From: a virus
Length of the DNA: 52,768 nt
Virus record (IMG/VR): IMGVR_UViG_3300045988_047893
Reading direction: 5' to 3' (one strand)
Shown here: positions 1 to 52,768 of the stretch, piece after piece
Layout of the letters: each line of letters opens with the position of its first letter
Position numbering within the stretch: position 1 is the first letter of the stretch
The notes under the pieces: generated by a model
Told to the model about the DNA's origin: nothing
Databases searched by the model: none
What the model saw: the letters and a program-made list of their open reading frames with translations, nothing else
Translations under genes and position numbers: made by a program

Positions 1-55
1 TATGGGGCGGGGCCGCTTTGTTTGAGCGGTGCGACCCTGCCAGGGCATCCGCTTG
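1..55. repeat. Terminal overlap, identical to 52714-52768 (circular assembly junction)
   Basis: Read directly: TATGGGGCGGGGCCGCTTTGTTTGAGCGGTGCGACCCTGCCAGGGCATCCGCTTG at both ends of the window. Confidence 0.95.
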
Positions 56-296: not shown

Positions 297-427
297 CACG
301 TTGCGGTGTCGTTCGCTGTGGCTGCATTGTAGCACCGCAACGTGTCGCCTGTCAAGCACGTTGCGGTGTTTTCGGCGGTCTGCACAAAAAACACGGTGCG
401 GTGCTGTGAAAATTGCACGTTGCGGTG
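297..427. promoter_or_regulatory. Operator array: four exact copies and one 11/12 copy of the 12-mer CACGTTGCGGTG
   Basis: Direct copies at 297-308, 357-368 and 416-427 (spacing 60 and 59 bp). Exact inverted copy at 333-344. One-mismatch copy at 392-403. All lie between divergent genes. Confidence 0.7.
326..355 (-). promoter_or_regulatory. Leftward sigma-70-type promoter
   Basis: On the - strand: TTGACA (355..350), 18-nt spacer, TACAAT (331..326). The spacer contains the inverted operator copy. Confidence 0.6.
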
Positions 428-448
428 TCGGCGGAACTGTGCTATATT
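420..448 (+). promoter_or_regulatory. Rightward extended -10 promoter
   Basis: TGcTATATT (440-448) with a weak -35 TTGCGG (420-425) and a 17-nt spacer. The -35 overlaps the operator at 416-427. It shares GTGCTAYA with the promoters at 326-334 and 1950-1958. Confidence 0.5.
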
Positions 449-27922: not shown

Positions 27923-27942
27923 ACGAAAACAAGGAGGTAACA

Positions 27943-30175: not shown

Positions 30176-30571
30176 ATGGAGAACATTCTGAAAGTTTTTC
30201 TGATGGCATTCCCTGAATGGCTGGCCTGCATCTTCATGGTGGTCGGCCTTGTGGTCACGGCGCTGGCGGCGGTACGTCTGGGTTACGGCCTTGTGGTCGC
30301 AAAGACCGTGTACAAGTGGATCGTCAACGCGGAAGAAAAGTTCGGCGCGGGTGCAGGCGCAGAGAAGAAAGCGCACGTTATCGCGGTGCTGCGCGGCTAC
30401 ACCCCGGACTGGCTGGACTGGGCAATCAATGAGCGGACGCTGGATTGGATCGTACAGCTTGTGTTCGACTTTACCAAGAAGAAGCTCGAAGATTACATGG
30501 CAAAGAAATCCGCGGAAACCACCACTGTGGCCCGTTTCGGTAAGGCGGGGGAGGACAAGCGTAATGACTGA
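30176..30571 (+). CDS. Holin (LL-H-like)
   Basis: N-terminal TM segment WLACIFMVVGLVVTALAAV. Position after the endolysin. Confidence 0.5.
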   Translation: MENILKVFLMAFPEWLACIFMVVGLVVTALAAVRLGYGLVVAKTVYKWIVNAEEKFGAGAGAEKKAHVIAVLRGYTPDWLDWAINERTLDWIVQLVFDFTKKKLEDYMAKKSAETTTVARFGKAGEDKRND

Positions 30572-30881
30572 CGAGGAACTGGAACATCGCCTGACAGCGG
30601 TCGAAAACCGTGCACAGAGCAACACCCACCGGCTGGACGAGCTGGGGAAGCTGACCGATGCAGTAAACGGCATGAACACCAATATCAAGTTGACCATCCA
30701 GCAACTCGAAAACACAAACAAGAGCCTTGAAATTGTAACGGCTCAAAACAAAAAGCAGGAGGACCGCCTGACCGCGCTGGAAAAAGCCCCCGGAACATTT
30801 GGGAACAAACTTTGGTGGGCTGTGATTGCGGCGTTGGTTTCCGGCCTTGTGGCATATGAACTGACGATGCTTCTGCACTGA
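30564..30881 (+). CDS. XhlA-like lysis-associated membrane protein
   Basis: Coiled coil (LEHRLTAVENRAQSN..) plus a C-terminal TM segment LWWAVIAALVSGLVAYELTMLL. Confidence 0.55.
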   Translation: MTDEELEHRLTAVENRAQSNTHRLDELGKLTDAVNGMNTNIKLTIQQLENTNKSLEIVTAQNKKQEDRLTALEKAPGTFGNKLWWAVIAALVSGLVAYELTMLLH

Positions 30882-30888
30882 AATGAAA

Positions 30889-30933
30889 ATCCCCCGCTGG
30901 CATCCTGATGGATTGCTGGCGGGGGATTTTTTG
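30889..30933 (+). terminator. Intrinsic terminator ending the late/lysis operon
   Basis: ATCCCCCGC pairs with GCGGGGGAT, followed by TTTTTTG. Confidence 0.75.
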
Positions 30934-30980
30934 TTTGTCTGGAAGTTTTGCACAAAGGAAATGTGCAAAGTGTGGAAAAA

Positions 30981-31010
30981 TTGCGAATTGACAACGGTAT
31001 ACCGTATAAT
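30981..31010 (+). promoter_or_regulatory. Promoter of the transposase gene
   Basis: TTGCGA, 18 nt, TATAAT. The spacer contains the perfect palindrome CGGTATACCG. Confidence 0.5.
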
Positions 31011-31059
31011 TTACGCTTAAAACGAAAATAAACGCCATAGTCGAAAGGAGGAAAACGGC

Positions 31060-32118
31060 GTGCGAGTGTTCAAACAGCTTACGCTTACAGACCGAATCCG
31101 TATTGAAAAGTGGTTGAAAGATGGGCTGAGAGTAAAGGAAATCGCAGACAGGTTGCGGGTTGACCCGTCCACGGTGTACCGGGAACTGAAACGCGGCAGC
31201 TACGACAAGTTGGACGGTAAGACGTGGAAGCTGATTCCTACATATAGCCCGGATATTGCAGAACAAAGGTATCAGGCACATCTTCGGGAGAAGGGACCAA
31301 ACATTAAGATTGGCAAGGATCATGAGCTTGCAAGCTATATCGAGCAGACCATTATAGATAAGGATTGTTCACCGGCTGCTGTGTACGGTTATGCCCTGGA
31401 AGAAGGACGGACATTCAAAACGCATATATCGGTGCCTACCATATACAGCTACATCAAAAAGGGCGTGTTCCTGAACTTGACGCAAAAGGCTCTGCCCAGA
31501 CATGGAGTGCATAAGGGCGACTATAAAAAGGTGAAAACAAAGGATCCTGCTCGTGCGCCTGCCGGTGAGAGCATCGAAAAACGCCCGGCGGAAGTAAAAG
31601 ACCGTGAAGAATTTGGACACTGGGAAATGGACACGGTGTATTCTGGCAAGAAGAAAAGCACGGTTGCGCTGCTGGTGCTGACTGAGCGCAAGACCCGGAA
31701 CGAAAATATTATAGTGGTGCCAGATCGCCGCGCAGAGACGACCGTGCGGGCAATCAATGCACTGGAACGGAAGTTAGGTGCAGAGAAGTTTGGCATTATC
31801 TATAAGAGCATCACAGTGGACAACGGCAGTGAGTTTGCATTGGCCGACCAGCTGGAACAGTCCTGCATCACCGGAGATAAGCGGACGAAGGTGTACTATT
31901 GTCATCCGTATTCTTCTTGGGAACGCGGGAGCAATGAGAATGTGAACGGCATGATTCGCCGCAGGCACCCGAAAGGCACAGACTTCTCAAAGGTCACGGC
32001 AGAGGAAATCGCGGCTACGGAGAACTGGATCAACAGCTATCCCAGAAAAATTTTCGGCTATAAGAGCGCCGGCACAATGTTCCGCGAATGCCTACGGGAG
32101 CTTGGTCTGACAGCATAA
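31060..32118 (+). CDS. IS30-family DDE transposase
   Basis: 352 aa. N-terminal HTH RIRIEKWLKDGLRVKEIADRLRVDPSTVYRELKRG. HWEMDTV.. and ITVDNGSEF.. DDE core. YYCHPYSSWERGSNENVNGMIRR is typical of IS30. Confidence 0.9.
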   Translation: MRVFKQLTLTDRIRIEKWLKDGLRVKEIADRLRVDPSTVYRELKRGSYDKLDGKTWKLIPTYSPDIAEQRYQAHLREKGPNIKIGKDHELASYIEQTIIDKDCSPAAVYGYALEEGRTFKTHISVPTIYSYIKKGVFLNLTQKALPRHGVHKGDYKKVKTKDPARAPAGESIEKRPAEVKDREEFGHWEMDTVYSGKKKSTVALLVLTERKTRNENIIVVPDRRAETTVRAINALERKLGAEKFGIIYKSITVDNGSEFALADQLEQSCITGDKRTKVYYCHPYSSWERGSNENVNGMIRRRHPKGTDFSKVTAEEIAATENWINSYPRKIFGYKSAGTMFRECLRELGLTA

Positions 32119-32293
32119 GCGACACGAAAACAGAAAACCGTTGGTAAAATCGAACAATAGAGGGCGGCTGCAAGCGGAGAAAACTTGACGGCCTGTCTGC
32201 TTTACGCTAAAATCCACAAAAATAAGGCCGAAAATTTGTTGCATTTAATGCTTTACTTTTCAAAGCTGAATTTGTAAAATAAACGCAAGAGAA

Positions 32294-39382: not shown

Positions 39383-40030
39383 ATGAGTAAGATTTTGAAA
39401 AGCGTAACTCTGGGCGACGTGAAAATTGGCGGCATCTTCAGGGCGCTGGGCAAGGAGTTTGTGAAGCTGGATGCAGACGAACACGGCTGTCTGGTACTGG
39501 CAAAGGACATTTGGACGAGAATGCCGTTCCGCGACGGCGACGACCCGGAATACCCCAACGATCTGCGCCGGAGCGAGATTATGCCATATCTGGGTAACTG
39601 CCTGGCAGAGTTTACAAAGAACGGCACTCCGCTGAGTACATTCATTCCGCTCAGAATCGACCTTCAGGACACGACCGGCCAGAACGAATACGGAATCTTT
39701 GAAGTGAGGATTGGCCTGTTGACCCTGCGCGGGTACGGAAAATATTGGCGGCTGATCCCGAAGGTAGATGCGCCGTGGTGGTTGGCAACGCCTTACGGTA
39801 CGCCGAATTGCTCTCCGCGCACCAGCGATAACAACAACGTCTGGCGCGTCCACACCGATGGCTCCGGCAGCCACTACTGGTACTACTACTCCTATGGTGT
39901 TCGCCCCGTTTTGTGCTTTTCCTCTGCACTCTTGGTCTCTGTCGAGGACGAAAGAGAGGCCGGGTTTTCGCTTTCCGATGTTCCGCTGGATGACCTGCTG
40001 GCCGAAATCAAGAGCCGGACGGAGGGCTAA
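39383..40030 (+). CDS. DGR target protein 2 (remote, non-structural context)
   Basis: 215 aa with no signal peptide. VR2 encodes ..SPRTSDNNNVWRVHTDGSGSHYWYYYSYGVRPV. The N-terminal region resembles target 1 (VKIGGIF.., WWLATP). Confidence 0.75.
   Translation: MSKILKSVTLGDVKIGGIFRALGKEFVKLDADEHGCLVLAKDIWTRMPFRDGDDPEYPNDLRRSEIMPYLGNCLAEFTKNGTPLSTFIPLRIDLQDTTGQNEYGIFEVRIGLLTLRGYGKYWRLIPKVDAPWWLATPYGTPNCSPRTSDNNNVWRVHTDGSGSHYWYYYSYGVRPVLCFSSALLVSVEDEREAGFSLSDVPLDDLLAEIKSRTEG
39811..39909 (+). repeat. DGR variable repeat 2 (VR2)
   Basis: Aligns to TR 26422-26520. The first 98 positions have 13 differences, all at TR adenines. The last position (39909 t, TR c) marks the end of homology. Confidence 0.85.
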
Positions 40031-42107: not shown

Positions 42108-42935
42108 GTGCGGGCATGGTACATTCGGGAGCAGAGACACATTCTTGGAACGTCCGATTATGCAGAAGTGGATCTCTTTGAAACAACGGACAAAGAGCAT
42201 ACCGCATCCGCTCGCCGCAAAAGAGAGCTGGCAACCTCCATTGCGCAGCAGAAGTATAACGACATGATAGCAAGGCGGTATTTCTGCCAGCTGGCCTATA
42301 CGAATTTCGGGGAAAGCGACTGGGCAGTCACGTTTACATACGACCACGACCACCAGCCAGCACCCGGAGATTTTAACCAAGTAGACCGGGACTGGACGAA
42401 TTTTACCCGCCGCTTGAAGCGCTTCTGCAAAAAGATGGGTCGAGAAGCATCCAAGTGGATGCAGGTTGCAGAGTACAGCGTGATGGACGAGGACGGGAAA
42501 GTTACCGGCAGACACCACCATCATGCGATCCTGCAAGGCAATCTGACATGGCAGGAGATCAAGGACTTGTGGCGGGACAGCACCGGGCGGCCGATGGGGC
42601 TTGTGAAAGTTGAACCTATCGACCTGACCTGTTCCAGCTTTGAACGCCTGACAACCTACATGACGAAAGCCCGCGCCCGTATCCGGCGCTGGCGACAGAG
42701 CCAAGGGCTGCAAAAGCCGAAAACCCCGCGCCCGAACGACACCAGATGGAGCCGCAAGCGCTTTGACGAAGCGTTTGCTTTGCCGGATGATCGTGAATAT
42801 TGGGAGAAAAAATACCCCGGTTATACCCTGCGTGAGTGTGAGCAGCATATCACCGGCAATAACACCAAGCACCTGATCGTGAAACTGAAAAAGAAGCCGG
42901 ACACACGGCGGAAGAACAGGAGGAACCAGCCATGA
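42108..42935 (+). CDS. HUH-type rolling-circle Rep-like initiator
   Basis: GTG start after GGAAGGAGGAAG. AVTFTYDHD.., RHHHHAIL (HUH) and LTTYMTK (catalytic Tyr motif) in the usual order. Confidence 0.55.
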   Translation: MRAWYIREQRHILGTSDYAEVDLFETTDKEHTASARRKRELATSIAQQKYNDMIARRYFCQLAYTNFGESDWAVTFTYDHDHQPAPGDFNQVDRDWTNFTRRLKRFCKKMGREASKWMQVAEYSVMDEDGKVTGRHHHHAILQGNLTWQEIKDLWRDSTGRPMGLVKVEPIDLTCSSFERLTTYMTKARARIRRWRQSQGLQKPKTPRPNDTRWSRKRFDEAFALPDDREYWEKKYPGYTLRECEQHITGNNTKHLIVKLKKKPDTRRKNRRNQP

Positions 42936-43516
42936 GCGCCAGACTGGAACTGGACGATCTGCCGCCGCGCTACCGTGCGCAGGCGGAGGCTCAAATAGCA
43001 GCCAGACAACGGGGAAAGTGTACCCATACGCAGCCAATGGCGGAGGCCGCAAGCGCTGCTGGGCGGTTGAACAAAACTTTTGATTCCTACGGAGAGTATG
43101 TGTATTACATCGGCACGATCTTGCCCGGCATTCAGTCCGGCAAGATCGTGTCAGCAGAACCGCACCCGAAGTGGACGCTGCTGCAAGAGGAAGAATACTG
43201 TGCAGTGAAACTCCCGGCGGCGCATTACACGGCAGACTATAAGCTCACCTATGCAGACGGACGGGTGGATGTGGTCGAGATCAAGTCGAAGTTTACCCGG
43301 AAAGCACAGCGGGATTATATCTATCGCCGTAGGCTTTTTATCGACCTCATAGCCAAACCGCAAGGATGGGGATTTGTTGAAATCATTACACCGGACACGA
43401 AAGCAGAAACGAAAGAGTGGAAGCGCCTGGCTGAACAGGCGGGAAAGGAACAATTATGGGCAAAAGCAGAGCAAGGCTGCCGGCATTTTACCGGCAGAGC
43501 ATCCAGAACGCGGTGA
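42932..43516 (+). CDS. DUF1064-like (restriction-endonuclease-fold) protein
   Basis: FDSYGEYVYY..YTADYKLTYADGRVDVVEIKSKFT pattern. Confidence 0.4.
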   Translation: MSARLELDDLPPRYRAQAEAQIAARQRGKCTHTQPMAEAASAAGRLNKTFDSYGEYVYYIGTILPGIQSGKIVSAEPHPKWTLLQEEEYCAVKLPAAHYTADYKLTYADGRVDVVEIKSKFTRKAQRDYIYRRRLFIDLIAKPQGWGFVEIITPDTKAETKEWKRLAEQAGKEQLWAKAEQGCRHFTGRASRTR

Positions 43517-44097
43517 ACCAGCAGATCAACATCAGCAAGTCGAAGCACCGCACCATGCTGAACCGTGAAGCAATCGGGCAGGTCGTTTCGTACTGCGCTG
43601 TTGCTGCGGCGCATGATCTCTGGGACTGGGGCGAGAAAGAATCTACGCTTCTGACCCTGAAAATGAACAATGCTGCATCCCGGTACATTCTGGATCATGA
43701 CAAGTATGGTGCACCGGAAGCAAAAAAGCGACTGGAAGCGCGCACTGCCCACCTGATGCCGGAAGAATTTTGGCTTCCGGTGGGTGGTCTGGTAGGCTCT
43801 GAAAAAAAGCTGCGTGTTCTGGCTGAACGCCGGGACGCTGCAAAGATGATCGTTCGTTTCTTTGTGGAATCGCTGGAAGAAATGGAGTACACCCCTGAAC
43901 AGATCGAGGTCGTGAAGGAAGAAATCAAGAAAAATTACCAGCAGTTCCTCGACTGGGTGGACGATGGCGGAGAAGAAGTTGCCTATGATCGTCTGCGCCG
44001 GGTCATTGAGGACATTTACGGCGTGGGTGCCATGGTGGAGCGCGTCAAGGGTGAAGAGCCCGTTTTCGGAGAACCCCTTTTCAAGAAAGATTTTTGA
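43456..44097 (+). CDS. Hypothetical protein
   Basis: 213 aa with a GGAAAGGAA RBS. Confidence 0.45.
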   Translation: MGKSRARLPAFYRQSIQNAVNQQINISKSKHRTMLNREAIGQVVSYCAVAAAHDLWDWGEKESTLLTLKMNNAASRYILDHDKYGAPEAKKRLEARTAHLMPEEFWLPVGGLVGSEKKLRVLAERRDAAKMIVRFFVESLEEMEYTPEQIEVVKEEIKKNYQQFLDWVDDGGEEVAYDRLRRVIEDIYGVGAMVERVKGEEPVFGEPLFKKDF

Positions 44098-44117
44098 TTT
44101 TTTGGGAGGACTGAGCA

Positions 44118-44645
44118 GTGAAAGTACACGAGGCGGAGGCAATCTTGAAATATTATGCGGACATCCCGCAGCGGATAGAGATCATCCGCCGTCAGTGTAC
44201 CGCGCTGAGCGACGAAGTGGACCCTATGCGGGGAATGGGCACCGATGGAATGCCCCGTGGTGGAACGCCTGGGGACAGCACGGCGGCGATGGCCTGCCGG
44301 ATGGATGAACTGGGCATTGGAGACAAACTGCGTCAGCTGGAACGGCAGCGGGCTGTGTTGCTGGAAGATCAGAACATTATCCGAGGACAAATGAACCGGA
44401 TGGACAGTGGCCACAATCTGATTTTAACGGAGTTCTACATCAACCACAAAAAATGGCACGAAGTACAGCAGAAAGTTCCATACAGTGTGCAGCACTTGAA
44501 GTACCTGCGAAACGTCGCTCTTGCACAGCTGGGAAGGAACCTGGAACGGCTCCCGGAGTGCGCCGCTTTATTATCGCGTGCGTTAAACACGCGCGAGGAA
44601 CAGCGCCGAGCGGATGCCTGGGCGGAGGGTGACATTCTCTTATAG
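44118..44645 (+). CDS. ArpU/RinA-like (sigma-70 region-4-like) transcriptional regulator
   Basis: GTG start. GMGTDGMPRGGTPGDS.. then LILTEFYINHKKWHEVQQKVPYSVQHLKYLRNVALAQL (HTH). Confidence 0.5.
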   Translation: MKVHEAEAILKYYADIPQRIEIIRRQCTALSDEVDPMRGMGTDGMPRGGTPGDSTAAMACRMDELGIGDKLRQLERQRAVLLEDQNIIRGQMNRMDSGHNLILTEFYINHKKWHEVQQKVPYSVQHLKYLRNVALAQLGRNLERLPECAALLSRALNTREEQRRADAWAEGDILL

Positions 44646-44806
44646 GCAAGGCTGCCTGCGGAACTTCATGTGCAGGCGCTTCCGCAAAATCGTGTCCGAT
44701 GGTCGTAGAAAAACAAACACGACTACCCCAAAAATCTGAAAACAGGCATAGAAATAACCCGGCGGGCAGTTGGCCTACCGGGTTTCGTGCAAAGGAGGAC
44801 AAAGTT

Positions 44807-45130
44807 ATGGGAAAGAAGCATAAAAACAAGGTTCGGGTGCTGCCCGGAAGGATGTATAGGCTGGTGCGGAGTGACAGGAGCGTATACTGTGACGCAGAGA
44901 ACGCGCTCAGAACCTGCTTTATCGAAGAAACCAAAGAGCGGCGGACCGCACGGGAAGAGGGCGAACTGTGCCGGTTCGTGAGGATGGCACCGGATGGTGG
45001 CGTTGAACTGATTTCAAACGCAGGAAACGTAGTCCGTTTCAAAAACGCAGAAGATCTTACGAAAACGCTGCGTTTCGCAAAAGATGTGCTGAGGATTACG
45101 GAGGTCTTGAAAAATGGGAATCAAAATTGA
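44807..45130 (+). CDS. Hypothetical protein (paralog of 45114-45350)
   Basis: AAAGGAGG RBS. GNVVRFKNAEDLTKTLRFAKDVL aligns with SDVIRFKNKEMAEATMDAVMRLF. Confidence 0.5.
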   Translation: MGKKHKNKVRVLPGRMYRLVRSDRSVYCDAENALRTCFIEETKERRTAREEGELCRFVRMAPDGGVELISNAGNVVRFKNAEDLTKTLRFAKDVLRITEVLKNGNQN

Positions 45131-45350
45131 ATTGAAAAAACGCATCGAGAAAACCATCAAAGAAAGAGCAGCCAAGAAATTGAGCAAAGAGGAACGCCGA
45201 AAATGGGATTCCTGCCCGGTAGTTCTGAAAGACGAAAACGGGAACGTGTCTATGTTTGCACTGGGGTCGGATGTTATTCGATTCAAGAACAAAGAAATGG
45301 CAGAAGCGACAATGGACGCTGTTATGCGGTTATTCGATGAAACGGAATGA
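45114..45350 (+). CDS. Hypothetical protein (paralog of 44807-45130)
   Basis: 78-aa basic N-terminus. Shares the RFKN motif. Confidence 0.5.
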   Translation: MGIKIELKKRIEKTIKERAAKKLSKEERRKWDSCPVVLKDENGNVSMFALGSDVIRFKNKEMAEATMDAVMRLFDETE

Positions 45351-45563
45351 TGGAATCTCGATGGTTTCATTCATACGTTTCGGAAATCGTCCACGGTGAT
45401 TCTTTCGCAAATGCTGCTGCACGATGTAGCCAAGTGATTCCATAGACAATTTTTCCGAGGATATAACACGAAGCGCGGAATCTTTGCTGGCTTGAACGGT
45501 ATATTCAATTTTACCTCCAGCAAGATTTTTAGTACTTATTCTAACCTGCTGTCTGTTCTGCAT
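45330..45563 (-). CDS. Hypothetical protein in an AT-rich island
   Basis: ATG 45563 after GAAAGGA. Local GC is clearly lower than in the flanks. Convergent with the 45114 gene. Confidence 0.4.
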   Translation of the reverse strand: MQNRQQVRISTKNLAGGKIEYTVQASKDSALRVISSEKLSMESLGYIVQQHLRKNHRGRFPKRMNETIEIPSFRFIE

Positions 45564-45584
45564 ACAAAGTCCTTTCAACACTTT

Positions 45585-45618
45585 AAGCCCGTCAGGTCAT
45601 CGACCTGGCGGGCTTTTT
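45585..45618. terminator. 14-bp hairpin between the leftward operon end and the AT-rich gene
   Basis: AAGCCCGTCAGGTC pairs with GACCTGGCGGGCTT (one G.T on the + strand), followed by TTT on the + strand. The T-tract orientation favours + strand termination. Confidence 0.45.
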
Positions 45619-45630
45619 GGATTTCGTGAT

Positions 45631-45954
45631 TTACTTTTCGTGTGGCGGCTGGTCATCCGGCGGAGCGTTGCGCTTGAAGATGATCTGCGGTTCGTTCGGA
45701 TCCCGGCCTTCCTCTTTGGCGTTCTGGGCGATTTCGTCCATCAGGCCGACAGGAAAACCGTTTTCGTCGAGCGGCCCATCGTAACCGGTGAAGTCAACGA
45801 CGTTCACGCAGGGCGGTTCGGGGATGGTTTTGTAGTATCTGCCGTCCTCATAGTTCTGATCCGTGACCCGGTTCCAGTAACCAATGTCTCCGTGCTGCTC
45901 CTGGGCGGCTTCCATCGCTTCCCGTGCCTGTTCTTCGGTCAATCCGTCGAACAA
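45631..45954 (-). CDS. Hypothetical acidic protein (5' end probably extends to 46013)
   Basis: ORF as given starts at TTG with no SD. An ATG at 46013 lies downstream of GGAGG and becomes in-frame if the A5 run at 46001-46005 is read as A6. Confidence 0.5.
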   Translation of the reverse strand: MFDGLTEEQAREAMEAAQEQHGDIGYWNRVTDQNYEDGRYYKTIPEPPCVNVVDFTGYDGPLDENGFPVGLMDEIAQNAKEEGRDPNEPQIIFKRNAPPDDQPPHEK

Positions 45955-46132
45955 GAGCCGTGAACCATCGGCAAAGGCCGCAACCAGCCGCCAAGGGGCG
46001 AAAAACTCTGCATCTTTCGTAGAAATGCCTCCTTCTGGGCAGTTAAGCCCCTAAATTGTAGGTTTTGTATCAAAAAGGCGGGTTAAATATGCCGAAATAT
46101 CATCTTTAGCAGAAAAAGATGAAGTTTCGTTG

Positions 46133-47023
46133 TCAGGATTTCGATTTTGTGGGGGTGTACCCATTCAGGCAGCGATTGAAACCGCGTTTCGTGAGGGCAT
46201 CGGTAACTCTGTCCTCTGGGAAGTAGTAAGCAGAACCGTCTGCCGCAGGAACAGCCCCGGCGGGATGCTCTGCGCCGGTGTACCAGTCCGTTTCCGTGTC
46301 GTACTTGCGGTGCAGGTACTTGTAAACGTCGCGCTGGGCTTTGTCGAATACCTCCACGAAAGAGAAGGATGCACAAGGCGGCATCTCTTTTGCCAGCATG
46401 GGTGCGTTCTGCGCCAGCCATGCAGCCATTACGGTTTTGGCTGCATTTCGTTTCGGCTTGCCTTCCCGGTGCACCAGATCCAGCAGCTGCACAACAAAGG
46501 GCTTTGGCAGATCGTTCAGCACTTCTTCCAGCGGGTACGGATTTTCGTGCAGCAGGGGCGACGTGCGCAGCTCCGGCACGAGATCCAGATCGTGACAGGT
46601 TACAGGCTTCTGGCGGTCGTCGATGCGCTCACTGGTGTAATACAGCATATCCTTGATTGCATTCTGTGCCGCGTCGGAAAGCTGCTCCACCAGAGCAACA
46701 CTGTCCGCAAAGCTGATCTGCGCCTCGTTTCGTTCGCCGGTGCTGCGGCCCGTCTTATAGGCCGCATCAATGATACCAAGCTCCATAGCCAGCCGGAAAA
46801 TGTGCTTGCAGGGCTTTTTGCGCTTTACAAAATCGTTGCAGGTGCAGCTTGCAAGGCTGGTCTGGTACGGCTCTTTGCCGGATCCATAGAAAACCCCGGT
46901 TTCGTGTTCCTTGTCCACAGAAAGCGGGCTGGTCTTGCTCTGCTGGGCGCTGGCAAGGCGCTTTTCTTCGTCAGTGTCTGCGGGATGCTCTGTCCAGGGG
47001 CCGAAGGCGGGAATCATAGTCAT
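46133..47023 (-). CDS. SWIM zinc-finger protein
   Basis: CTCNDFVKRKKPCKHIF (CxC..CxH). AAAGGAGG RBS. Confidence 0.6.
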   Translation of the reverse strand: MTMIPAFGPWTEHPADTDEEKRLASAQQSKTSPLSVDKEHETGVFYGSGKEPYQTSLASCTCNDFVKRKKPCKHIFRLAMELGIIDAAYKTGRSTGERNEAQISFADSVALVEQLSDAAQNAIKDMLYYTSERIDDRQKPVTCHDLDLVPELRTSPLLHENPYPLEEVLNDLPKPFVVQLLDLVHREGKPKRNAAKTVMAAWLAQNAPMLAKEMPPCASFSFVEVFDKAQRDVYKYLHRKYDTETDWYTGAEHPAGAVPAADGSAYYFPEDRVTDALTKRGFNRCLNGYTPTKSKS

Positions 47024-47126
47024 AACGGGAAACCTCCTTTTCGTGTTTCGTTACGGTCATGATAGAACAAAACGCAAACAAAAGCAATAAAAGGCAAGAA
47101 GATTTCGTGCAGAGGCACCAGAATGA

Positions 47127-47194
47127 CCCCGGCGGGCTACCGGGAAGATGGGGCGGGGCTGCTTTACGGTGCCTGCCCTGCCAGAACTTCCGGG
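47127..47194. repeat. Intergenic two-hairpin repeat R1 (degenerate)
   Basis: CCCGG..CCGGG, then GGGGCGGGGCTGC-TTTACGGT-GCCTGCCCTGCC. Confidence 0.6.
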
Positions 47195-47369
47195 TCTGCG
47201 CTCAGACGTGGACGGTGGGCGGAGCTACCAGGTCGGCGAGGCGGGGCACGGTCAAGTGGTGACGTTCTGTCACCGGTTCCGGGCACTGGTGCTCTGGTTC
47301 TTCATGGTTGCTGCTCCTTTTCGTGATACTGGATTTCGCGATACTCCCGGCGGCTGCCGGGGCTGGCTG

Positions 47370-47588
47370 TCAGAACGGCAGGCCGGTATAGTTGCGCATG
47401 GGAATGGCATCGGCGGCGGGCACCAGCATATTGAGCAGTTGCCGGTATAAAGCCGGGTTTGCTGCACGCTGGGCACGGAAGTCCTCTAGGAATTGCGCCT
47501 GTGCTGCCAGATCGGCCAAGTTTTCGTCATCCACGTTGTAGCATTGGCATTGATCCGGCCCAGCGGAGTATATCCAACATCGAAACAT
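47370..47588 (-). CDS. Hypothetical protein
   Basis: 72 aa with an AAAGGAGG RBS. Confidence 0.5.
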   Translation of the reverse strand: MFRCWIYSAGPDQCQCYNVDDENLADLAAQAQFLEDFRAQRAANPALYRQLLNMLVPAADAIPMRNYTGLPF

Positions 47589-47616
47589 GAAAATACCTCC
47601 TTTCTGTTTCGTGATG

Positions 47617-47693
47617 TTCCCGACGTAAATGCCGGGAAGATGGGGCGGGGTTGCTTTGTCCGGTGCAGCCCTGCCAAAATATCCGGTTTCGTG
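47617..47693. repeat. Intergenic two-hairpin repeat R2
   Basis: TTCCCG..CGGGAA, then GGGGCGGGGTTGC-TTTGTCCGGT-GCAGCCCTGCC-AAAATATCCGG-TTTCGTG. It abuts the stop codon of the 47694 gene. Confidence 0.8.
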
Positions 47694-49319
47694 TTAAGCG
47701 TTCAGCTGTAAAAACGTGCTCTGCGTGGGGATCAGGTGCCGGGTGAGGGTGTCGGTGTAGCTGGCCTCCCCCTCGTAGCTGTCAACCACCCGGCGGTCTG
47801 CGGCGGCCATATCGTGATAGCTCTTTTTGCCGTAGGTGGGCGGCAGCCAGCCTTTGCGCTGTCCGGCGTAGAGGTTGAAGGACTTCAAAACGTCCGTGTT
47901 CGTAAACTCGATGTGGCAGGTGCCTTTCTTGTAAAACGTGGCGGTGAAATAGTGCAGCTGGATCTTCTGGGTCTGGCCGCTCTTTTCGGCGGCATCCAGG
48001 ACGGCGCGGAGTTCGTCCCCATTGTAGGGCTTGCCGTTCGTGTCCAGGAAGTGCAGCACCCGCTCGATCTGGGCAACATGGCCTGTTGCGTTGTACCGGG
48101 GGCAGAAACGCCCATCGTATGTATCAAAGGCGTTGCAGCGGAAAATCACCTTGCGGTTGATCTTGTACGCGGAGTTCGTGCACCAGCCGTTGTAATAATG
48201 CACGTTCTTGCTGTACTCGTCGTTATAATGCAGGTTCGTCCAGTCGTCGAACAGCTTTATAATTTCGTGGTCGATGCTGGAAAGAAGATTTCGTGAAATT
48301 TCTTCCCGGACGGTCAGAATGTTGTACGCGCTGAAGTCGTAGCCTTCAAGCTCTTTGATTCGCTTCTGGTAATCCTGCTGCATTTCGTAGGTCATCGCAT
48401 CGAACAGCTGCGGCATTTCAAACAGCTGTTTCCAGTACATCCCGCGCAGTTCCCGGATAGCGTCGTTATAAGATTTCGTGAAAGCCATCACGGGGTTTTC
48501 TTTCTTACCAGCGCCGGCAGAGGAAAACAACGACTTGATTCCGTTGTACTCTTCATAGATCCGGCGCACACCCTCAGCCGCGGCGTTATACCGTTCAATG
48601 GCTGCCGTGATGGGGTCGGAAGATACCAGGGCGGCAAACTCCGGGTTTTCTTTCAAACGCTCTGCGGTTTCGTTTTTCAGATCCAGCCGGATCCGGCTCA
48701 CCGGCTCCCGGTCGGGAATGTCCACCGACACAAGCGCCACCTCCACGCGGGCGGCGCGGCGGGCGTTCTTGAACGCATCCGGGATATATTTTACCGTGGC
48801 GTGCAGCTCTTCCAGCTTTGCGGCCAGCTCTTTCCGTTCGTTGGTGCAGGGGTTGCGCAGGGTTTCGGCGTTGAGCAGACAGCGGATTTTGCCGCCGTCC
48901 TGCATGACATCCAGCGCTTTGAGCAGGTGCGCGGCACCGGCGGAGAAAGGCGGATTCATGACGATTGCGGCGTATTTCGTGGTGGGGCGGAAGGTCAGAA
49001 AGTTATCATGCACCACCCGGAAACCGTCTTTCTTCAGCTTTGCGCGGAAGTCGCTGGAAAGTTCGATGCAGTCAAGCTCTGCGCTTCGTGCCTTTCCCTT
49101 GTCGTATTGGTCAACCTCGCCGGTCTTATAGTCGTGGTGGACGTTGAACGCCAGGGCATGGACCTGACGCGCAAGCGCTCCATCACCGGCGGACGGTTCA
49201 AGAATGGGTTTCGGGTAGGTGGTGAACCCGGATTTTACTTCCCGCAGGGAAAAGACCATATCAAAGGCCAGGCTGTCCGGCGTGGGGTAGAAGTCCAGGG
49301 CATCGTTGGGGGTGGTCAT
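47694..49319 (-). CDS. N6-adenine DNA methyltransferase with a DUF4942-like C-terminal domain
   Basis: ILEPSAGDGAL (motif I) and AAIVMNPPFS (NPPF motif IV). 541 aa. From memory, this architecture occurs in orphan MTases of mobile elements. Confidence 0.75.
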   Translation of the reverse strand: MTTPNDALDFYPTPDSLAFDMVFSLREVKSGFTTYPKPILEPSAGDGALARQVHALAFNVHHDYKTGEVDQYDKGKARSAELDCIELSSDFRAKLKKDGFRVVHDNFLTFRPTTKYAAIVMNPPFSAGAAHLLKALDVMQDGGKIRCLLNAETLRNPCTNERKELAAKLEELHATVKYIPDAFKNARRAARVEVALVSVDIPDREPVSRIRLDLKNETAERLKENPEFAALVSSDPITAAIERYNAAAEGVRRIYEEYNGIKSLFSSAGAGKKENPVMAFTKSYNDAIRELRGMYWKQLFEMPQLFDAMTYEMQQDYQKRIKELEGYDFSAYNILTVREEISRNLLSSIDHEIIKLFDDWTNLHYNDEYSKNVHYYNGWCTNSAYKINRKVIFRCNAFDTYDGRFCPRYNATGHVAQIERVLHFLDTNGKPYNGDELRAVLDAAEKSGQTQKIQLHYFTATFYKKGTCHIEFTNTDVLKSFNLYAGQRKGWLPPTYGKKSYHDMAAADRRVVDSYEGEASYTDTLTRHLIPTQSTFLQLNA

Positions 49320-49350
49320 GGTGTAAACCTCTTTTCGTGTTTCGTGATAT

Positions 49351-49424
49351 GCCCGGCGGAATGCTGGGCGGTGGGGCGGGGCCGCTTTGTCCGGTGCGGC
49401 CCTGCCAGGGCATCCGGTTTCGTG
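49351..49424. repeat. Intergenic two-hairpin repeat R3
   Basis: GCCCGGC..GCTGGGC, then GGGGCGGGGCCGC-TTTGTCCGGT-GCGGCCCTGCC-AGGGCATCCGG-TTTCGTG. It abuts the stop codon at 49425. Confidence 0.8.
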
Positions 49425-49604
49425 TCAGGTGTTGAGTTGGTAGCCGCGGCGGGCGCAAATGAGGCGGAGCCGGGCGGCGGCGATCTGCTGGCGGACCGCT
49501 TCGGGCCTGCCGGTGCACTGGGCTTCCCGGCGCAGGTCTTGCAGTGTCCACTGCTGACGGATGATCTCGCGGGCCTGCTCAAAGATGTTGTCAAACTTCT
49601 TCAT
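49425..49604 (-). CDS. Hypothetical 59-aa protein
   Basis: ATG 49604 after AAAGGAG, inside ORF 49425-49646. Confidence 0.45.
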   Translation of the reverse strand: MKKFDNIFEQAREIIRQQWTLQDLRREAQCTGRPEAVRQQIAAARLRLICARRGYQLNT

Positions 49605-49624
49605 GATTTCGTTCTCCTTTCGTA

Positions 49625-50215
49625 TCATGCAAACAGGCGGTTGCATACCTGCTGTATTTCGTCGTTCGCCTTCATCGGGGCAATGAGCACGGAAACGGCG
49701 GCCTTCTTCGGGTCTACGGTGTCCGTTGCCAGGATGGGCGCAAACGGGCTGTTGCTGCTGTGGTAAACAAATTCGTGATGATCCACAAAAGCGTCATACT
49801 CCGAATTTATCATGATGGGCCGGGATCCGTTGCGGAACATTCGGAACGTGCCCCAGACTTTGCCCTTTGCTTCGACTTCCTGCAAGATCGAAGTGCGTTT
49901 GACTTCTTCTTTGCAGGCGCTGAACTTCTGGAACATCTGCGCGGCGGTCAGCTGGTGCGGATCGTTGACCACAAACCCGGCATCACTGGAAACGATGGTC
50001 ACGCCGTCGGCGGGTGCGTCCTGCATGGTCACGGGCTGGATAACATCCCGGTAAAGGATGGCGGGCAGCTTGAACGCTGCATAGCCGGTGATGATGTACA
50101 CGCTGCCGCTCTGGCAGGTGATCCGAACGGCGTTGCGGCTTTTTGCCTGCCCTTTCAAATAGGCGGTGATCTTCTTCACGTTCAGCCCGGCGGGGGTGCT
50201 GGTTGCTCTTTTCAT
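49625..50215 (-). CDS. Hypothetical protein
   Basis: ATG 50215 after AAAGGAG, inside ORF 49625-50341. 196 aa. Confidence 0.5.
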   Translation of the reverse strand: MKRATSTPAGLNVKKITAYLKGQAKSRNAVRITCQSGSVYIITGYAAFKLPAILYRDVIQPVTMQDAPADGVTIVSSDAGFVVNDPHQLTAAQMFQKFSACKEEVKRTSILQEVEAKGKVWGTFRMFRNGSRPIMINSEYDAFVDHHEFVYHSSNSPFAPILATDTVDPKKAAVSVLIAPMKANDEIQQVCNRLFA

Positions 50216-50255
50216 ATTGCAAAAACTCCTTTTCGTTTTCGTTCTGTTTTTCGTG

Positions 50256-50329
50256 CCCGGTGCGCTGCCGGGGTAGTGGGGCGGGGTTGCTTTGCCCGGT
50301 GCAGCCCTGCCAAAATATCCGGTTTCGTG
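50256..50329. repeat. Intergenic two-hairpin repeat R4
   Basis: CCCGG..CCGGG, then GGGGCGGGGTTGC-TTTGCCCGGT-GCAGCCCTGCC-AAAATATCCGG-TTTCGTG. Confidence 0.8.
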
Positions 50330-50337
50330 GTGGTGGG

Positions 50338-51189
50338 TCATGCCAGCAGCCCGGCGGCGATGCTTTCAAAGTCCAGCTGTTTCACGGGTGCTTCATCCGG
50401 CGCGGCTACGGCGGCGGGGGCCTGCTTTGCGTCCTCTACGGCCTTCCGGGTCTTGCGCCAGGCATCCAGCGCGGCGGCCTGACCCTTGCGGTCGGTTTCG
50501 GGAACAGCCAGGAAAGCAGCCTTTGCTTCCCGCTCTGCCTTGCGGAGCACATCCGGGGCGGGCTTTTTCGTGGCGGCGGGCTTGCTGGCCTTTTTCGTGG
50601 GCAGCGGATCGACGTGCACAAGCTCCGGCAATTCGTGGTGTTCTTCGGTGATGATGGGGGCCGGGGTGCTGGCGGTCTGCTCTGCTGCTGCCTTTGCGGC
50701 CTTGCGTTCTGCGGCCAGCTTTTTGTTATACTCCATGATGGCGGCGACAGATCCGAAGCGGCCGGCGGGGGCCTGCTTTGCGTCGTGTACCTGCAAGCAG
50801 CTGAACAGGTGCGATTTCGTGGGGTAGAAATGCGGCGCGGGGGCTGCTTCCTTGCCTTCGGCTTCAGCGGCTTCCCGCTGGGCCTTGCTGGGGCGGGTGG
50901 TGTACTTCCACAGGTAGCATTCAATCAAATGCGTTTCGCCCTTCTTGACGCTCTTGCCTTCTTTCTTCCAGTGATCGAAGGTGTGCAGCTCTGCCGCTGC
51001 AAGGATGATTTCAACGTCTGCGATGGTGGCGGGCTGTTCGTCGCCGTTCTCGTCGGTGGTGACTGCGTTTGCAGCCATTGCGGCGATCTGCTCCGGGGTG
51101 TGGTGCGCGGTGGCGATGGCGTGCAGGGTGACGGGGTCCAGCTTCGCGGCTTCGTTCATGATGATCTGATTGTTGGTCATGCCTTTCAT
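50338..51189 (-). CDS. ArdC-N/DUF1738-like ssDNA-binding-domain protein with an Ala/Lys-rich tail
   Basis: LHTFDHWKKEGKSVKKGETHLIECYLWK resembles the TF.QW..G..V.KGEK core of ArdC N-domains. This is a weak call made by eye. Confidence 0.35.
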   Translation of the reverse strand: MKGMTNNQIIMNEAAKLDPVTLHAIATAHHTPEQIAAMAANAVTTDENGDEQPATIADVEIILAAAELHTFDHWKKEGKSVKKGETHLIECYLWKYTTRPSKAQREAAEAEGKEAAPAPHFYPTKSHLFSCLQVHDAKQAPAGRFGSVAAIMEYNKKLAAERKAAKAAAEQTASTPAPIITEEHHELPELVHVDPLPTKKASKPAATKKPAPDVLRKAEREAKAAFLAVPETDRKGQAAALDAWRKTRKAVEDAKQAPAAVAAPDEAPVKQLDFESIAAGLLA

Positions 51190-51234
51190 GGTTCGTTCTC
51201 CTTTGTTCGTTGTGGTTGATGTTCGGGATGATCT

Positions 51235-51298
51235 CCCGGCGGCTGCCGGGGTAGTGGGGCGGGGCTGCTTTGCGGTGCAACCCTGCTAGAGTGTCCGG
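51235..51298. repeat. Intergenic two-hairpin repeat R5
   Basis: CCCGGC-GGCT-GCCGGG, then GGGGCGGGGCTGC-TTTGCGGT-GCAACCCTGC. Confidence 0.75.
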
Positions 51299-51305
51299 CG
51301 GTGGT

Positions 51306-51704
51306 TCATGCGGTGTACATCTGGCGGAACAGGTCCAGCGCTCCGATCTCTGCGGCCTTGTGCTGTGCTGCCAGCTTTGCGCCGGCGCTGTCGTGGCCGT
51401 TGAAGTGGTACGCTTCGGAGTAGGCGTTGACGATGGACCATTCAAGGCGGCTGCGCTCCTGCTGCGCTTCCCACTCTGCCAGATCGAAAACGTAGATGGT
51501 GCAGGTCCAGGCGTACAGGCTGAACACCTGTTCAACCTTGACCTTCAAGCCCTTGCAGCGGTCAAGCGTGGCTTTGATCCGGTCACGCTCCTGCCGATCC
51601 ATGGGAACGATGGAATAGCAGGGAATGAAACGATCGTGCACCGGGGTGACGTTCCAGCGGTGACGGGCTGCCAGCTGGTTAATCTTCTTGTCAAGTGCTG
51701 TCAT
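51306..51704 (-). CDS. Hypothetical protein
   Basis: ATG 51704 after GAAAGGAG. 132 aa. Confidence 0.5.
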   Translation of the reverse strand: MTALDKKINQLAARHRWNVTPVHDRFIPCYSIVPMDRQERDRIKATLDRCKGLKVKVEQVFSLYAWTCTIYVFDLAEWEAQQERSRLEWSIVNAYSEAYHFNGHDSAGAKLAAQHKAAEIGALDLFRQMYTA

Positions 51705-51718
51705 GTTGTGCGCTCCTT

Positions 51719-51973
51719 TCAGCAATCCAGGCCGCAGGCTGCAAGCGTGCGGGTGATGATGTCAACATCTGTCTGGCTCCACTGGCAAGATTTGAGGTCG
51801 TAGGCCAGGCGGTGCAGGTCAATCCCCTGCACCGGTGCGGGGTTGATGGCTACAACGTCGCCGTTGCCCTGCACATAGTCGGCGGCCTCCTTCTTGCTGG
51901 CGGCGGGAACGGTCACGCGGAAAACGCTTTTCCCGTCGTCTAGATACACGTTGTACACGGTCAGTTTCTTCAT
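51719..51973 (-). CDS. Hypothetical protein
   Basis: ATG 51973 after AAAGGAG. MKKLTVYNVYLDDGKSVFRV... The longer ORF-track version (to 52213) would run through repeat R6. Confidence 0.5.
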   Translation of the reverse strand: MKKLTVYNVYLDDGKSVFRVTVPAASKKEAADYVQGNGDVVAINPAPVQGIDLHRLAYDLKSCQWSQTDVDIITRTLAACGLDC

Positions 51974-52016
51974 GGGGTGTGCTCCTTTGTTCGTGGGTTG
52001 ATGTTCGGGATGATCT

Positions 52017-52082
52017 CCCGGCGGCTGCCGGGGTAGTGGGGCGGGGCCGCTTTGTCCGGTGCGGCTCTGCCAGGGCATCCGG
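52017..52082. repeat. Intergenic two-hairpin repeat R6
   Basis: CCCGGC-GGCT-GCCGGG, then GGGGCGGGGCCGC-TTTGTCCGGT-GCGGCTCTGCC-AGGGCATCCGG. Confidence 0.8.
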
Positions 52083-52089
52083 TGGGCAT

Positions 52090-52302
52090 TCAGCCCAGAA
52101 GCGCGGCCGCGGCATCCTGCCAGGTGGGAAAGCTGTAGAACGTGCGGCGCTCTGCGTTGGTGTTCTCGCCGGTGATTCGTGCGGCGATCCGCTGCCCGGT
52201 GCGGGGGTCCCACCCTTCCAGCCGATACCCGGCGGCCTGAAGGCGGCGGGCTGCGGCGTTCTCCTTGCGGTTCCGTTCGCGGATCTGTTCAAGTGTCATC
52301 AT
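52090..52302 (-). CDS. Hypothetical 70-aa protein
   Basis: ATG 52302 after GAAAGGAG. Confidence 0.45.
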   Translation of the reverse strand: MMTLEQIRERNRKENAAARRLQAAGYRLEGWDPRTGQRIAARITGENTNAERRTFYSFPTWQDAAAALLG

Positions 52303-52316
52303 GGTGCAGGCTCCTT

Positions 52317-52664
52317 TCAATCTTCGGTGCAGCCGTGGCAGTAAAGCGCGTCAATCACTTTGTCATCGCTGAAATCTTCCGGGGTGCCGTTCGCGTCAAC
52401 CACCAGGTCAACGCGGTCATAAATTCGCAGATCGGTTTCTGCATCCACCAGAAAATACCAGTCGTCACCGTCCAGCGCGTCGGTGCACCAGACTTCAACC
52501 GCGCCGTCATCGGTGGCGGTCATGCCCTGCACAATGGCCGGGGCGATGTAGCGGCCAAGGGGGCCGACGGTGTAGGGGCATTGTGCCGCGGCCTTCGGTG
52601 CGGTGCCTGCCAGCAGTGCGGCCGCCAGTGCGGCGGCGGTGGTGATCTTCTTTGCAAGTTTCAT
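52317..52664 (-). CDS. Secreted Cys-containing protein
   Basis: Signal peptide MKLAKKITTAAALAAALLAGTAPKAAA. AAAGGAG RBS. Confidence 0.55.
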   Translation of the reverse strand: MKLAKKITTAAALAAALLAGTAPKAAAQCPYTVGPLGRYIAPAIVQGMTATDDGAVEVWCTDALDGDDWYFLVDAETDLRIYDRVDLVVDANGTPEDFSDDKVIDALYCHGCTED

Positions 52665-52693
52665 GTTCTTTGCTCCTTTGCTTTTCAGGTTTG

Positions 52694-52768
52694 CCCCGGC
52701 GGGCTGCCGGGGTTATGGGGCGGGGCCGCTTTGTTTGAGCGGTGCGACCCTGCCAGGGCATCCGCTTG
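52694..52768. repeat. Intergenic two-hairpin repeat R7 (continues across the junction; same bases as 1-55)
   Basis: CCCCGGC-GGGCT-GCCGGGG, then GGGGCGGGGCCGC-TTTGTTTGAGCGGT-GCGACCCTGCC-AGGGCATCCGC. Confidence 0.8.
52714..52768. repeat. Terminal overlap, identical to 1-55
   Basis: Exact 55-nt identity with the window start. Confidence 0.95.

Follow-up and report, generated by a model that had tools for sequence, protein, structure and literature searches.

A short word, CACGAAA, recurs in a single orientation along one operon of a phage genome, IMG/VR record IMGVR_UViG_3300045988_047893 (52,768 nucleotides, analysed at full length and called the window below). The array formed by this heptamer is real, statistically extreme, conserved and under selection at the nucleotide level. 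It occupies a leftward operon (genes g0 to g11, Table 1) of a phage whose closest annotated relatives are the Faecalibacterium phages Lelie and FP_Toutatis (Toutatis below). Going by sequence alone, we tentatively suggest that the heptamer is a multi-copy, orientation-specific recognition word that works in single-stranded form, probably as RNA, and that would be read in trans on the polycistronic mRNA.

Enrichment and polarity of the heptamer

TTTCGTG, which reads CACGAAA in the sense of the leftward mRNA, occurs 23 times on the + strand of the window, and 22 of these copies fall in the operon (Table 1). The exact count agrees with a preliminary description of this DNA, made by a model from the letters alone, which had listed the same 23 starts and no other copy on the + strand of the whole window. 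Nine copies on the - strand are scattered over the window, one of them (46355) within the operon region. Taking both strands together, the 32 copies compare with 8.7 +/- 3.2 in dinucleotide shuffles of the whole window, and none of 100 shuffles reaches 32. The Markov expectation for positions 44700-50900 is 0.9 copies (order 1) or 1.5 copies (order 2); models of higher order are inflated by the heptamer itself. The earlier estimate of about 0.25 copies in 5.2 kb was thus of the right order of magnitude and somewhat low in value, and both enrichment and strand bias are significant.

The excess is strictly local. The leftward operon (7.3 kb) carries 22 sense copies versus 1 antisense copy, and the remaining 45 kb carry 8 sense copies and 1 antisense copy, which is about the chance level. 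All excess copies lie within 5.2 kb, from about 2 kb downstream of the operon promoter to the last bases before the hairpin at its 3´ end. Spacings range from 7 to 831 bp and the array runs through genes; tight regular clustering of the iteron, parS or parC kind is not found. The single + strand copy outside the operon (44783) has no counterpart in Toutatis or Lelie and fits chance (1 + strand copy in ~45 kb). It is probably a chance occurrence and not a member of the array.

One-off variants, also noticed in the preliminary description, are in excess on the sense strand only (AACGAAA 8, GACGAAA 4, TACGAAA 3, CACGAAC 3, CACGAAT 3), and the core ACGAA occurs 54 times in sense versus once in antisense orientation. 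The base 3´ of the heptamer is G in none of the 22 window copies and in 7% of 332 distinct contexts from the whole family. Other flanking positions hold little information, conservation spanning only 7-8 nt. The recognition word is best written as MACGAAA followed by any base except G, with CACGAAA as the preferred form.

Selection on the word inside genes

Eleven operon copies lie within coding sequence, distributed over codon phases 0, 1 and 2 as 4, 1 and 6. When the 11 operon genes were shuffled among synonymous codons (n = 3000), 2.2 +/- 1.1 coding copies were obtained with a maximum of 6, versus the 11 observed. The heptamer is present at 11 of the 14 peptide sites able to encode it, and its coding copies use codons such as ACG and AAA, which are minority choices in the operon genes. 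The same procedure gave 6 observed copies versus 1.6 in Lelie (P = 0.003) and 5 versus 2.5 in Toutatis (P = 0.03). As a null control, 27 Toutatis genes outside the operon showed no excess (1 observed, 1.9 expected). Because the difference between 11 and 2.2 is replicated in both relatives and vanishes in the control, the enrichment is due neither to a repeated peptide nor to codon bias; it is nucleotide-level selection on the word, with strict polarity. This is what the preliminary description had concluded from the eleven coding copies, their three phases and the peptides around them, all of which we verified.

In an alignment of orthologues of the operon methyltransferase (MTase, g8; 71-99% identity), copies are gained and lost, some of them through amino-acid replacements (TK/KK, HE/NE, SRN/SAN). 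The 7-nt word keeps a density of 2-4 copies per kb even where this costs amino-acid replacements.

Placement of copies and their fate in relatives

The placement of copies relative to genes was compared among 11 operon variants. In approximately 40% of copies the last base lies 10-22 nt ahead of a start codon (most often 13 nt), so that these copies abut the Shine-Dalgarno sequence; about 10% follow a stop codon within 15 nt, and about 40% are coding. In one variant, a single 5´ untranslated region (UTR) contains five copies, the last of which overlaps the ATG. Positions in the window at which copies adjoin Shine-Dalgarno sequences or stop codons, as described before, were verified and are given in Table 1.

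A leftward operon homologous to this one is found in Lelie and Toutatis, with the replication/late-activator module on one side and the terminase genes on the other. It contains 14 (Lelie) and 17 (Toutatis) copies of TTTCGTG, all on one strand, the rest of which has none. The two operons differ considerably in their genes, and Toutatis lacks both the MTase and the SWIM-finger protein (g10). Further, 80 IMG/VR loci, found via the MTase, have 8-32 sense versus 0-5 antisense heptamers. The array is thus kept in Lelie, Toutatis and all of these loci and its density is conserved, while individual sites turn over.

Sister operons, which we reached through distant homologues of g5, share g1, g11 and flanking genes with the array operon and contain 0-4 heptamers. 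No alternative polar word was found in them. The sister phages without the array have related terminase genes.

Triplets of CACGAAA with a period of 9-11 nt were observed in three unrelated viral contigs, L098 (2024-11107), L122 (2779-4530) and L150 (6330-6502), which share no genes with the heptamer operon. The triplets recur at several intergenic sites, some of which immediately precede a Shine-Dalgarno sequence with its start codon; the resemblance may be accidental, or the word may be used more widely. The matches listed in a scan of IMG/VR for triple heptamers were mostly unrelated tandem repeats, plus family members, and the scan is not interpretable.

RAGATH-5 and twister-sister elements

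Searches with Rfam return eight matches to RAGATH-5 (RF02685) on the sense strand of the operon, in its leader and intergenic gaps. One of them is counted twice in the terminal overlap of the contig, so there are seven distinct copies; the homologous operons of Lelie and Toutatis contain 6-7 each. In three of the seven, the RAGATH-5 model begins right after a heptamer, and around 20% of 214 distinct RAGATH-5 instances abut one. The slot behind the MTase stop codon is occupied by RAGATH-5 or, in two loci (L006 and L044), by a twister-sister ribozyme (81.6 bits), with CACGAAA on both sides in either case. This sharing of one slot among relatives makes the two elements look interchangeable. Neither model includes the heptamer. 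Rfam lists twister-sister as a self-cleaving class.

Twister, twister-sister and hammerhead ribozymes cluster, together with orphan RAGATH motifs, in phage-like operons. Gene clusters associated with RAGATH-5 and twister-sister (RF02685, RF02681) were reportedly described by Weinberg et al. in 2015, and to our knowledge the logic of ribozyme-associated operons has stayed unexplained since their first description. The array lives in exactly such a cluster, but the heptamer lies outside both models and most RAGATH-5 instances do not adjoin it. The operon shows a second, independent layer of nucleic-acid-level selection in a ribozyme-associated cluster. Our literature search returned no paper mentioning RAGATH-5 and none mentioning CACGAAA in phage or bacterial DNA.

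Two derivations of the word from such elements were considered and rejected. It might belong to a hammerhead core (CUGANGA ... CGAAA), but an Rfam E-value search of 44000-52768 returns RAGATH-5 only. It might also be the target-site duplication of a mobile RAGATH-5 cassette. Heptamers do flank three cassettes, yet only about a fifth of RAGATH-5 instances abut the word and the coding copies are selected, so this explanation is insufficient.

Predicted accessibility of the word in RNA

Pairing was predicted by RNAplfold-type calculations and expressed as the probability that all 7 bases are unpaired. The median for heptamers in sense RNA is 0.27-0.49, versus 0.11-0.21 for composition-matched 7-mers and 0.02 for all positions. 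At the heptamer positions of antisense RNA it is 0.02-0.04, near the value of composition-matched 7-mers there (0.02-0.03). Copies situated at least 30 nt inside genes behave in the same way (0.31 versus 0.11, pooled Mann-Whitney P ~1e-4).

A possible model of word function

Among the possible readings, a recognition word acting on mRNA is the best supported, on four grounds combined: its predicted accessibility, its fixed placement beside Shine-Dalgarno sequences and stop codons, its restriction to a single transcript, and the presence of twister-sister in the same slots. The preliminary description had offered a binding-site array and an RNA-level motif among its possibilities, and it is the RNA-level motif that gains most support. 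We infer that RNA, and not the non-template DNA strand, is the form in which the word acts, that the heptamer is read by a protein, and that the outcome of recognition concerns translation or the lifetime of cistrons.

The model we propose is as follows. Selection has sown the word along the sense strand of one operator-flanked operon, which in Toutatis-like Faecalibacterium phages would lie at the first-injected end and which combines anti-restriction-like proteins with ribozyme-type punctuation. A trans-acting RNA-binding protein or endoribonuclease would bind the word as a multi-copy mRNA site. From their places just 5´ of Shine-Dalgarno sequences, just 3´ of stop codons and within cistrons, the copies would tune how efficiently each cistron is translated or how long it survives, jointly with the intergenic RAGATH-5 and twister-sister elements, which may cut or structure the same transcript. 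A bolder version, which we consider conceivable though rather doubtful, is that CACGAAA is the address label of an undescribed sequence-specific RNA-targeting activity, encoded by phage or host, which together with the self-cleaving ribozymes and RAGATH-5 would form an mRNA-processing and timing programme of a first-injected anti-defence operon in gut phages. If true, this would provide the first handle on why ribozyme-associated gene clusters exist and what RAGATH-5 does.

The nearest functional analogy is the RegB/RegA system that acts on early mRNAs of phage T4. There, too, a short sense-strand word in transcripts of early operons is concentrated at ribosome-binding sites, as the heptamer is. 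The RegB word GGAG is, however, the Shine-Dalgarno core itself, and RegA recognizes translational-operator sites, whereas the heptamer stands beside the Shine-Dalgarno sequence and is also selected within genes; a cognate nuclease or repressor was not found among the scanned proteins. Another likeness is with CsrB and RsmZ, small non-coding RNAs in which about 20 GGA-containing heptamers in hairpin loops bind CsrA. Here again some 20 accessible copies of a 7-nt word sit on one RNA, but the carrier is a 7-kb coding mRNA. Overall, the behaviour of the array comes closest to that of a cis-acting word present many times on an early phage transcript, and it lacks the full set of features that define Chi sites, stoperators, translocase guides or iterons. 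A cis pairing partner or antisense seed was also considered and rejected: the sense RNA of the operon holds only one UUUCGUG (46355), and Lelie and Toutatis have not conserved the single + strand copy at 44783.

Several observations weigh against an RNA-level role. The accessibility values are predicted ones; an A-rich word close to a ribosome-binding site would be expected to be unpaired, and copies related by descent are no independent data points. Single-strandedness of the sense strand fits non-template DNA in a transcription bubble equally. A constraint acting purely on DNA would likewise enrich the word between genes, where sequence can change more freely. The promoter-proximal 0.7-2 kb of the transcript contains few copies, which the model does not predict, and the sister operons with RAGATH-5-like words manage with 0-4 heptamers. 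Among the operon proteins, searches of Pfam, PHROG and PDB gave no match to a cognate RNA-binding protein or RNase, and no nuclease domain was seen in the proteins scanned, many small ones of which are uncharacterised. Finally, no operon gene tracks the array; g4, the g5 subtype, the MTase and the SWIM-finger protein do not.

Search for a putative reader of the word

A gene outside the operon does follow the array. It adjoins the replication module and encodes p43456, an all-helical protein of 213 amino acids (phrog_24484) that every heptamer-rich lineage possesses, at identities as low as 35%. A profile hidden Markov model finds no homologue in heptamer-poor loci (E <= 10), and in three such loci that we inspected its slot holds only an ORF (open reading frame) for about 45 residues, basic and with a similar N-terminus. 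The structure model of p43456 (mean predicted local distance difference test, pLDDT, 67) gives no significant PDB match and no recognisable DNA-binding fold. We regard p43456 as an array-associated candidate that is a lead only.

The rolling-circle replication initiator (42108-42935, + strand; Pfam REP_ORF2-G2P, phrog_3584) is encoded 2.7 kb upstream of the array, and its type also co-varies with the array. CACGAAA happens to be the yeast Swi4 box, and the Swi4 domain is related to phage KilA-N. This candidate was rejected, as no KilA-N or Bro-N was found in about 40 window proteins scanned.

Alternative explanations

The word could act on DNA during transcription. A host or phage elongation factor might read it on the non-template strand and pause or modify RNA polymerase along the operon, one use of which would be to couple transcription to translation or to DNA entry. 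RfaH reads ops in this way, Bacillus NusG reads TTNTTT, and sigma reads -10-like elements in the open bubble. Such reading accounts for the co-orientation with transcription, confinement to one unit and a short asymmetric word; the sense accessibility holds equally for single-stranded DNA, and in Lelie the operon lies at the first-entering DNA end. We nevertheless find it unlikely: the known elements number one or few per operon, mostly in leaders, while the array has 20-30 copies including those inside genes; no NusG/RfaH paralogue was seen among the proteins scanned; and the tight register with Shine-Dalgarno sequences and stop codons better suits a role in mRNA. On double-stranded DNA, the heptamers might be orientation-dependent roadblocks or regulator sites through which a phage protein damps the operon in the lysogen or late in infection. 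This would resemble the stoperators of Cluster A mycobacteriophages (L5, Bxb1), which likewise are many asymmetric copies in one orientation to transcription, often in short gaps beside start and stop codons, and the presence of the array does track the gene of p43456 next to the replication module. Stoperators, however, span 13-17 bp, share their sequence with the operator that the repressor binds at the early promoter, and are spread over both arms of the genome. Conservation of the heptamer extends over no more than 7-8 nt, its flanks being uninformative; a single operon holds the array, and some 40% of the copies fall within coding sequence. The idea is further weakened because the heptamer is unrelated to the operon's own operator-like 13-mers and absent from its promoter; with no recognisable DNA-binding fold in p43456, we hold it to be quite unlikely. 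The heptamers could also be recombination linkers at cassette borders that aid the exchange of units composed of a gene and an RNA element between phages. The operon is indeed mosaic, and after the post-MTase slot with its RAGATH-5 or twister-sister different genes follow; the heptamer is the last shared sequence at that junction. Among operon variants of the window, Lelie, Toutatis and 18 IMG/VR loci, 17% of 462 BLAST homology breakpoints lie within 10 nt of a heptamer, versus 6% of all positions; this association is confounded by the tendency of both breakpoints and heptamers to cluster between genes. PeSL cassettes of T4-type phages, promoter-plus-hairpin units that have been proposed as recombination linkers, are comparable in being conserved intergenic cassettes between small early genes of a mosaic region, but no internal sigma-70-like promoters are predicted inside our operon and the word also occurs within genes. 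Seven bases offer very little homology, and selected coding copies and tandem copies in one UTR stay unaccounted for, which makes linkers improbable.

Other alternatives concern the DNA as a whole. The preliminary description had put forward a Chi-like protective site facing a nearby cos end. Such an exonuclease-modulating signal would shield the first-injected DNA end, or a rolling-circle tail, from AddAB. PhageTerm predicted cohesive ends for Lelie, whose record was made to begin at cos (PMC11792537). This puts the operon at the right end of Lelie, the last to be packaged, at a distance of 0.65-7.4 kb, with the TTTCGTG array at 2.2-7.4 kb on the strand whose 3´ terminus is at that end. If Lelie behaves like lambda, that end would also be injected first. 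The suggested geometry is reasonable. Orientation of the window to cos is predicted from synteny only, as its DNA has no nucleotide homology with the right end of Lelie. An enzyme entering at the right end of Lelie meets 5´-TTTCGTG-3´ from the 3´ side, which is the orientation expected of Chi; the word, like the sites of RecBCD or AddAB, is a polar one of 5-8 nt on one strand; the phage encodes a rolling-circle initiator; and no Gam-like inhibitor was seen in it, though phage Mushu has one. We know of no characterised Chi that is not strongly over-represented in its host, and here the proposal fails. Our sample of presumed host DNA (~122 kb) consists of 24 non-overlapping flanks of Mu-type (Mushu-like) prophages from gut metagenomes (93.6 kb) and 28.7 kb of Faecalibacterium sequence next to a Toutatis-like prophage integrase, a search with the Toutatis integrase having yielded 4 Faecalibacterium-like loci. 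The former hold 5 CACGAAA and 3 TTTCGTG versus 6-7 expected of each (8 versus 12-13; rank 4745 of 8041 7-mers), the latter about 3 further copies, and phage Mushu itself has 3 in 36.6 kb. This lack of over-representation disfavours a Chi-like site, as does a density of about 4 copies per kb in one operon. The array, moreover, ends exactly at the 3´ boundary of the operon; it starts about 2 kb inside the DNA end, so the promoter and first genes would be lost first; and sister phages of the same layout are nearly without it (0-4 copies). We judge a Chi-like function very improbable. Even less credible is a polar guide for a DNA translocase or packaging motor nearing the terminal cos (comparable to KOPS/SRS or lambda cosQ), which had also been suggested. 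The strictly polar 7-mer does lie in the last 4-14% of the DNA packaged in Lelie. A single cosQ site suffices in lambda, however, and the confinement of all excess to 5.2 kb, with chance level elsewhere, resembles neither the genome-wide skew of KOPS nor one cosQ-type site. The array follows operon borders and not distance from cos, sister phages whose terminase genes are related lack it, and its register with Shine-Dalgarno sequences and stop codons would have no explanation. Hardly likely, too, is that the heptamer is a target of the operon's DNA methyltransferase or of a host Type III or BREX-like system, with a single orientation retained as a means of escaping cleavage. An N6-adenine MTase with DUF4942 is indeed among the operon products, and targets of Type III and BREX systems are typically asymmetric 5-7-bp words with strand bias. 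Toutatis, though, has 17 copies without this MTase; strand bias would explain orientation but not a ~17-fold enrichment; and because both orientations occur genome-wide (23 and 9), head-to-head pairs exist.

The host genus Faecalibacterium is a major human gut commensal, and since cultured members of the phage group exist (Lelie, Toutatis), the question is directly testable. If the word is read on mRNA by a binding protein or nuclease with 7-nt specificity, this reader would be of interest as a tool. If it acts on DNA, it would represent a new kind of polar signal at the leading end of a phage.

The operon and other features of the genome

The two ends of the window share an exact 55-bp terminal repeat (1-55 = 52714-52768), so that the contig is circular and the genome has 52713 bp. 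Rightward genes extend from about 0.5 to 45.4 kb; a single leftward operon runs from its promoter (355-326) across the junction to 45631. The first cistron, g0 (MSIEFFKLPAALKKAIWAAYLAEWKKKQAAKKPATH), is kept in most heptamer-rich relatives. The Pfam match of g5 is weak; ArdcN is matched by 20 of 36 aligned g5 homologues, and the AlphaFold model of g5 (pLDDT 85) has ArdC (6i89) and Rad4/XPC BHD as top Foldseek matches. Apart from g5, the MTase and the SWIM-finger protein, the operon encodes small proteins of unknown function.

The promoter is bracketed by five copies of ACACCGCAACGTG, which look like a dedicated, putative operator set of the leftward operon.

Table 1. Coordinates of the operon, its genes, signals, RNA elements and heptamers in the window (the first coordinate of each heptamer entry is the start of TTTCGTG on the + strand)
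Feature	Position	Strand	Remarks
Leftward operon	45631..52768, continuing across circular junction to promoter at 355-326	-	ORFs, translations, Pfam, PHROG
g0	243-136	-	35 aa; first cistron after promoter
g1	52664-52317	-	
g2	52320-52090	-	
g3	51973-51719	-	
g4	51725-51306	-	
g5	51189-50338	-	ArdC-N-like; Pfam, homologues, structure model
g6	50215-49625	-	
g7	49604-49425	-	
g8	49319-47694	-	N6-MTase with DUF4942; Pfam/PHROG
g9	47588-47370	-	
g10	47023-46133	-	SWIM-finger protein; Pfam/PHROG
g11	45954-45631	-	
Sigma-70-like operon promoter	326..355	-	TTGACA, 18-nt spacer, TG, TACAAT; 11/12 positions match
Five operator-like 13-mers	297..428	.	ACACCGCAACGTG; one inverted
Strong hairpin	45585..45615	+	between convergent + strand genes and operon 3´ end; terminator-like for + strand transcription
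p43456	43456..44097	+	213 aa; outside operon
RAGATH-5	47142..47193	-	53.0 bits
RAGATH-5	47634..47686	-	68 bits
RAGATH-5	49365..49417	-	70.4 bits
RAGATH-5	50270..50322	-	69.5 bits
RAGATH-5	51248..51298	-	68.5 bits; no exact heptamer flanking
RAGATH-5	52030..52082	-	68.5 bits; variant CACGAAC before next Shine-Dalgarno
RAGATH-5	52709..52765	-	operon leader; same copy as window 1-52
Isolated TTTCGTG	44783..44789	+	5´ leader of + strand gene 44807-45130; outside operon
Heptamer	45622..45628	-	3´ UTR, between g11 stop codon and hairpin
Heptamer	45636..45642	-	last g11 codons (PPHEK*), phase 0
Heptamer	46187..46193	-	g10 coding (LTK), phase 2
Heptamer	46543..46549	-	g10 coding (HEN), phase 0
Heptamer	46900..46906	-	g10 coding (HET), phase 0
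Heptamer	47039..47045	-	abuts g10 Shine-Dalgarno (CACGAAAAGGAGG)
Heptamer	47103..47109	-	intergenic, 3´ of RAGATH-5 copy 47193-47142
Heptamer	47319..47325	-	abuts Shine-Dalgarno-like AGGAGC, ahead of 11-codon mini-ORF
Heptamer	47607..47613	-	g9 5´ UTR, just 5´ of Shine-Dalgarno
Heptamer	47687..47693	-	directly after g8 stop codon, abuts RAGATH-5 5´ end
Heptamer	48263..48269	-	g8 coding (HEI), phase 0
Heptamer	48289..48295	-	g8 coding (SRN), phase 1
Heptamer	48474..48480	-	g8 coding (FTK), phase 2
Heptamer	48975..48981	-	g8 coding (TTK), phase 2
Two tandem heptamers	49333..49346	-	starts 49333 and 49340; g8 5´ UTR (CACGAAACACGAAAAGAGG)
Heptamer	49418..49424	-	after g7 stop codon, abuts RAGATH-5 5´ end
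Heptamer	50249..50255	-	g6 5´ UTR, then variants AACGAAA and AACGAAAAGGAG
Heptamer	50323..50329	-	8 nt after g5 stop codon, abuts RAGATH-5 5´ end
Heptamer	50566..50572	-	g5 coding (ATK), phase 2
Heptamer	50593..50599	-	g5 coding (PTK), phase 2
Heptamer	50815..50821	-	g5 coding (PTK), phase 2; copy nearest promoter

The leftward operon lies between two strong terminator-like hairpins of the + strand, 117-150 and 45585-45615, which would prevent rightward transcripts from entering it in the antisense direction or terminate them once they had passed through.

Further to the left, the stretch 30462-32156 contains an IS30-family DDE recombinase gene (31060-32118; HTH_38 + rve) between 16-bp inverted repeats (30462-30477 and 32141-32156). 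Its position is that of the serine integrase in Lelie and Toutatis, and FP_Lagaffe and Clostridium phage Saumur have homologues that bear the annotation integrase or transposase. The choice is between an insertion-sequence element and a DDE-type phage integrase. Two DUF6273 proteins are encoded at 27832-29202 and 39383-40030; in Lelie and Toutatis, diversity-generating retroelements act on this domain (PMC11792537).

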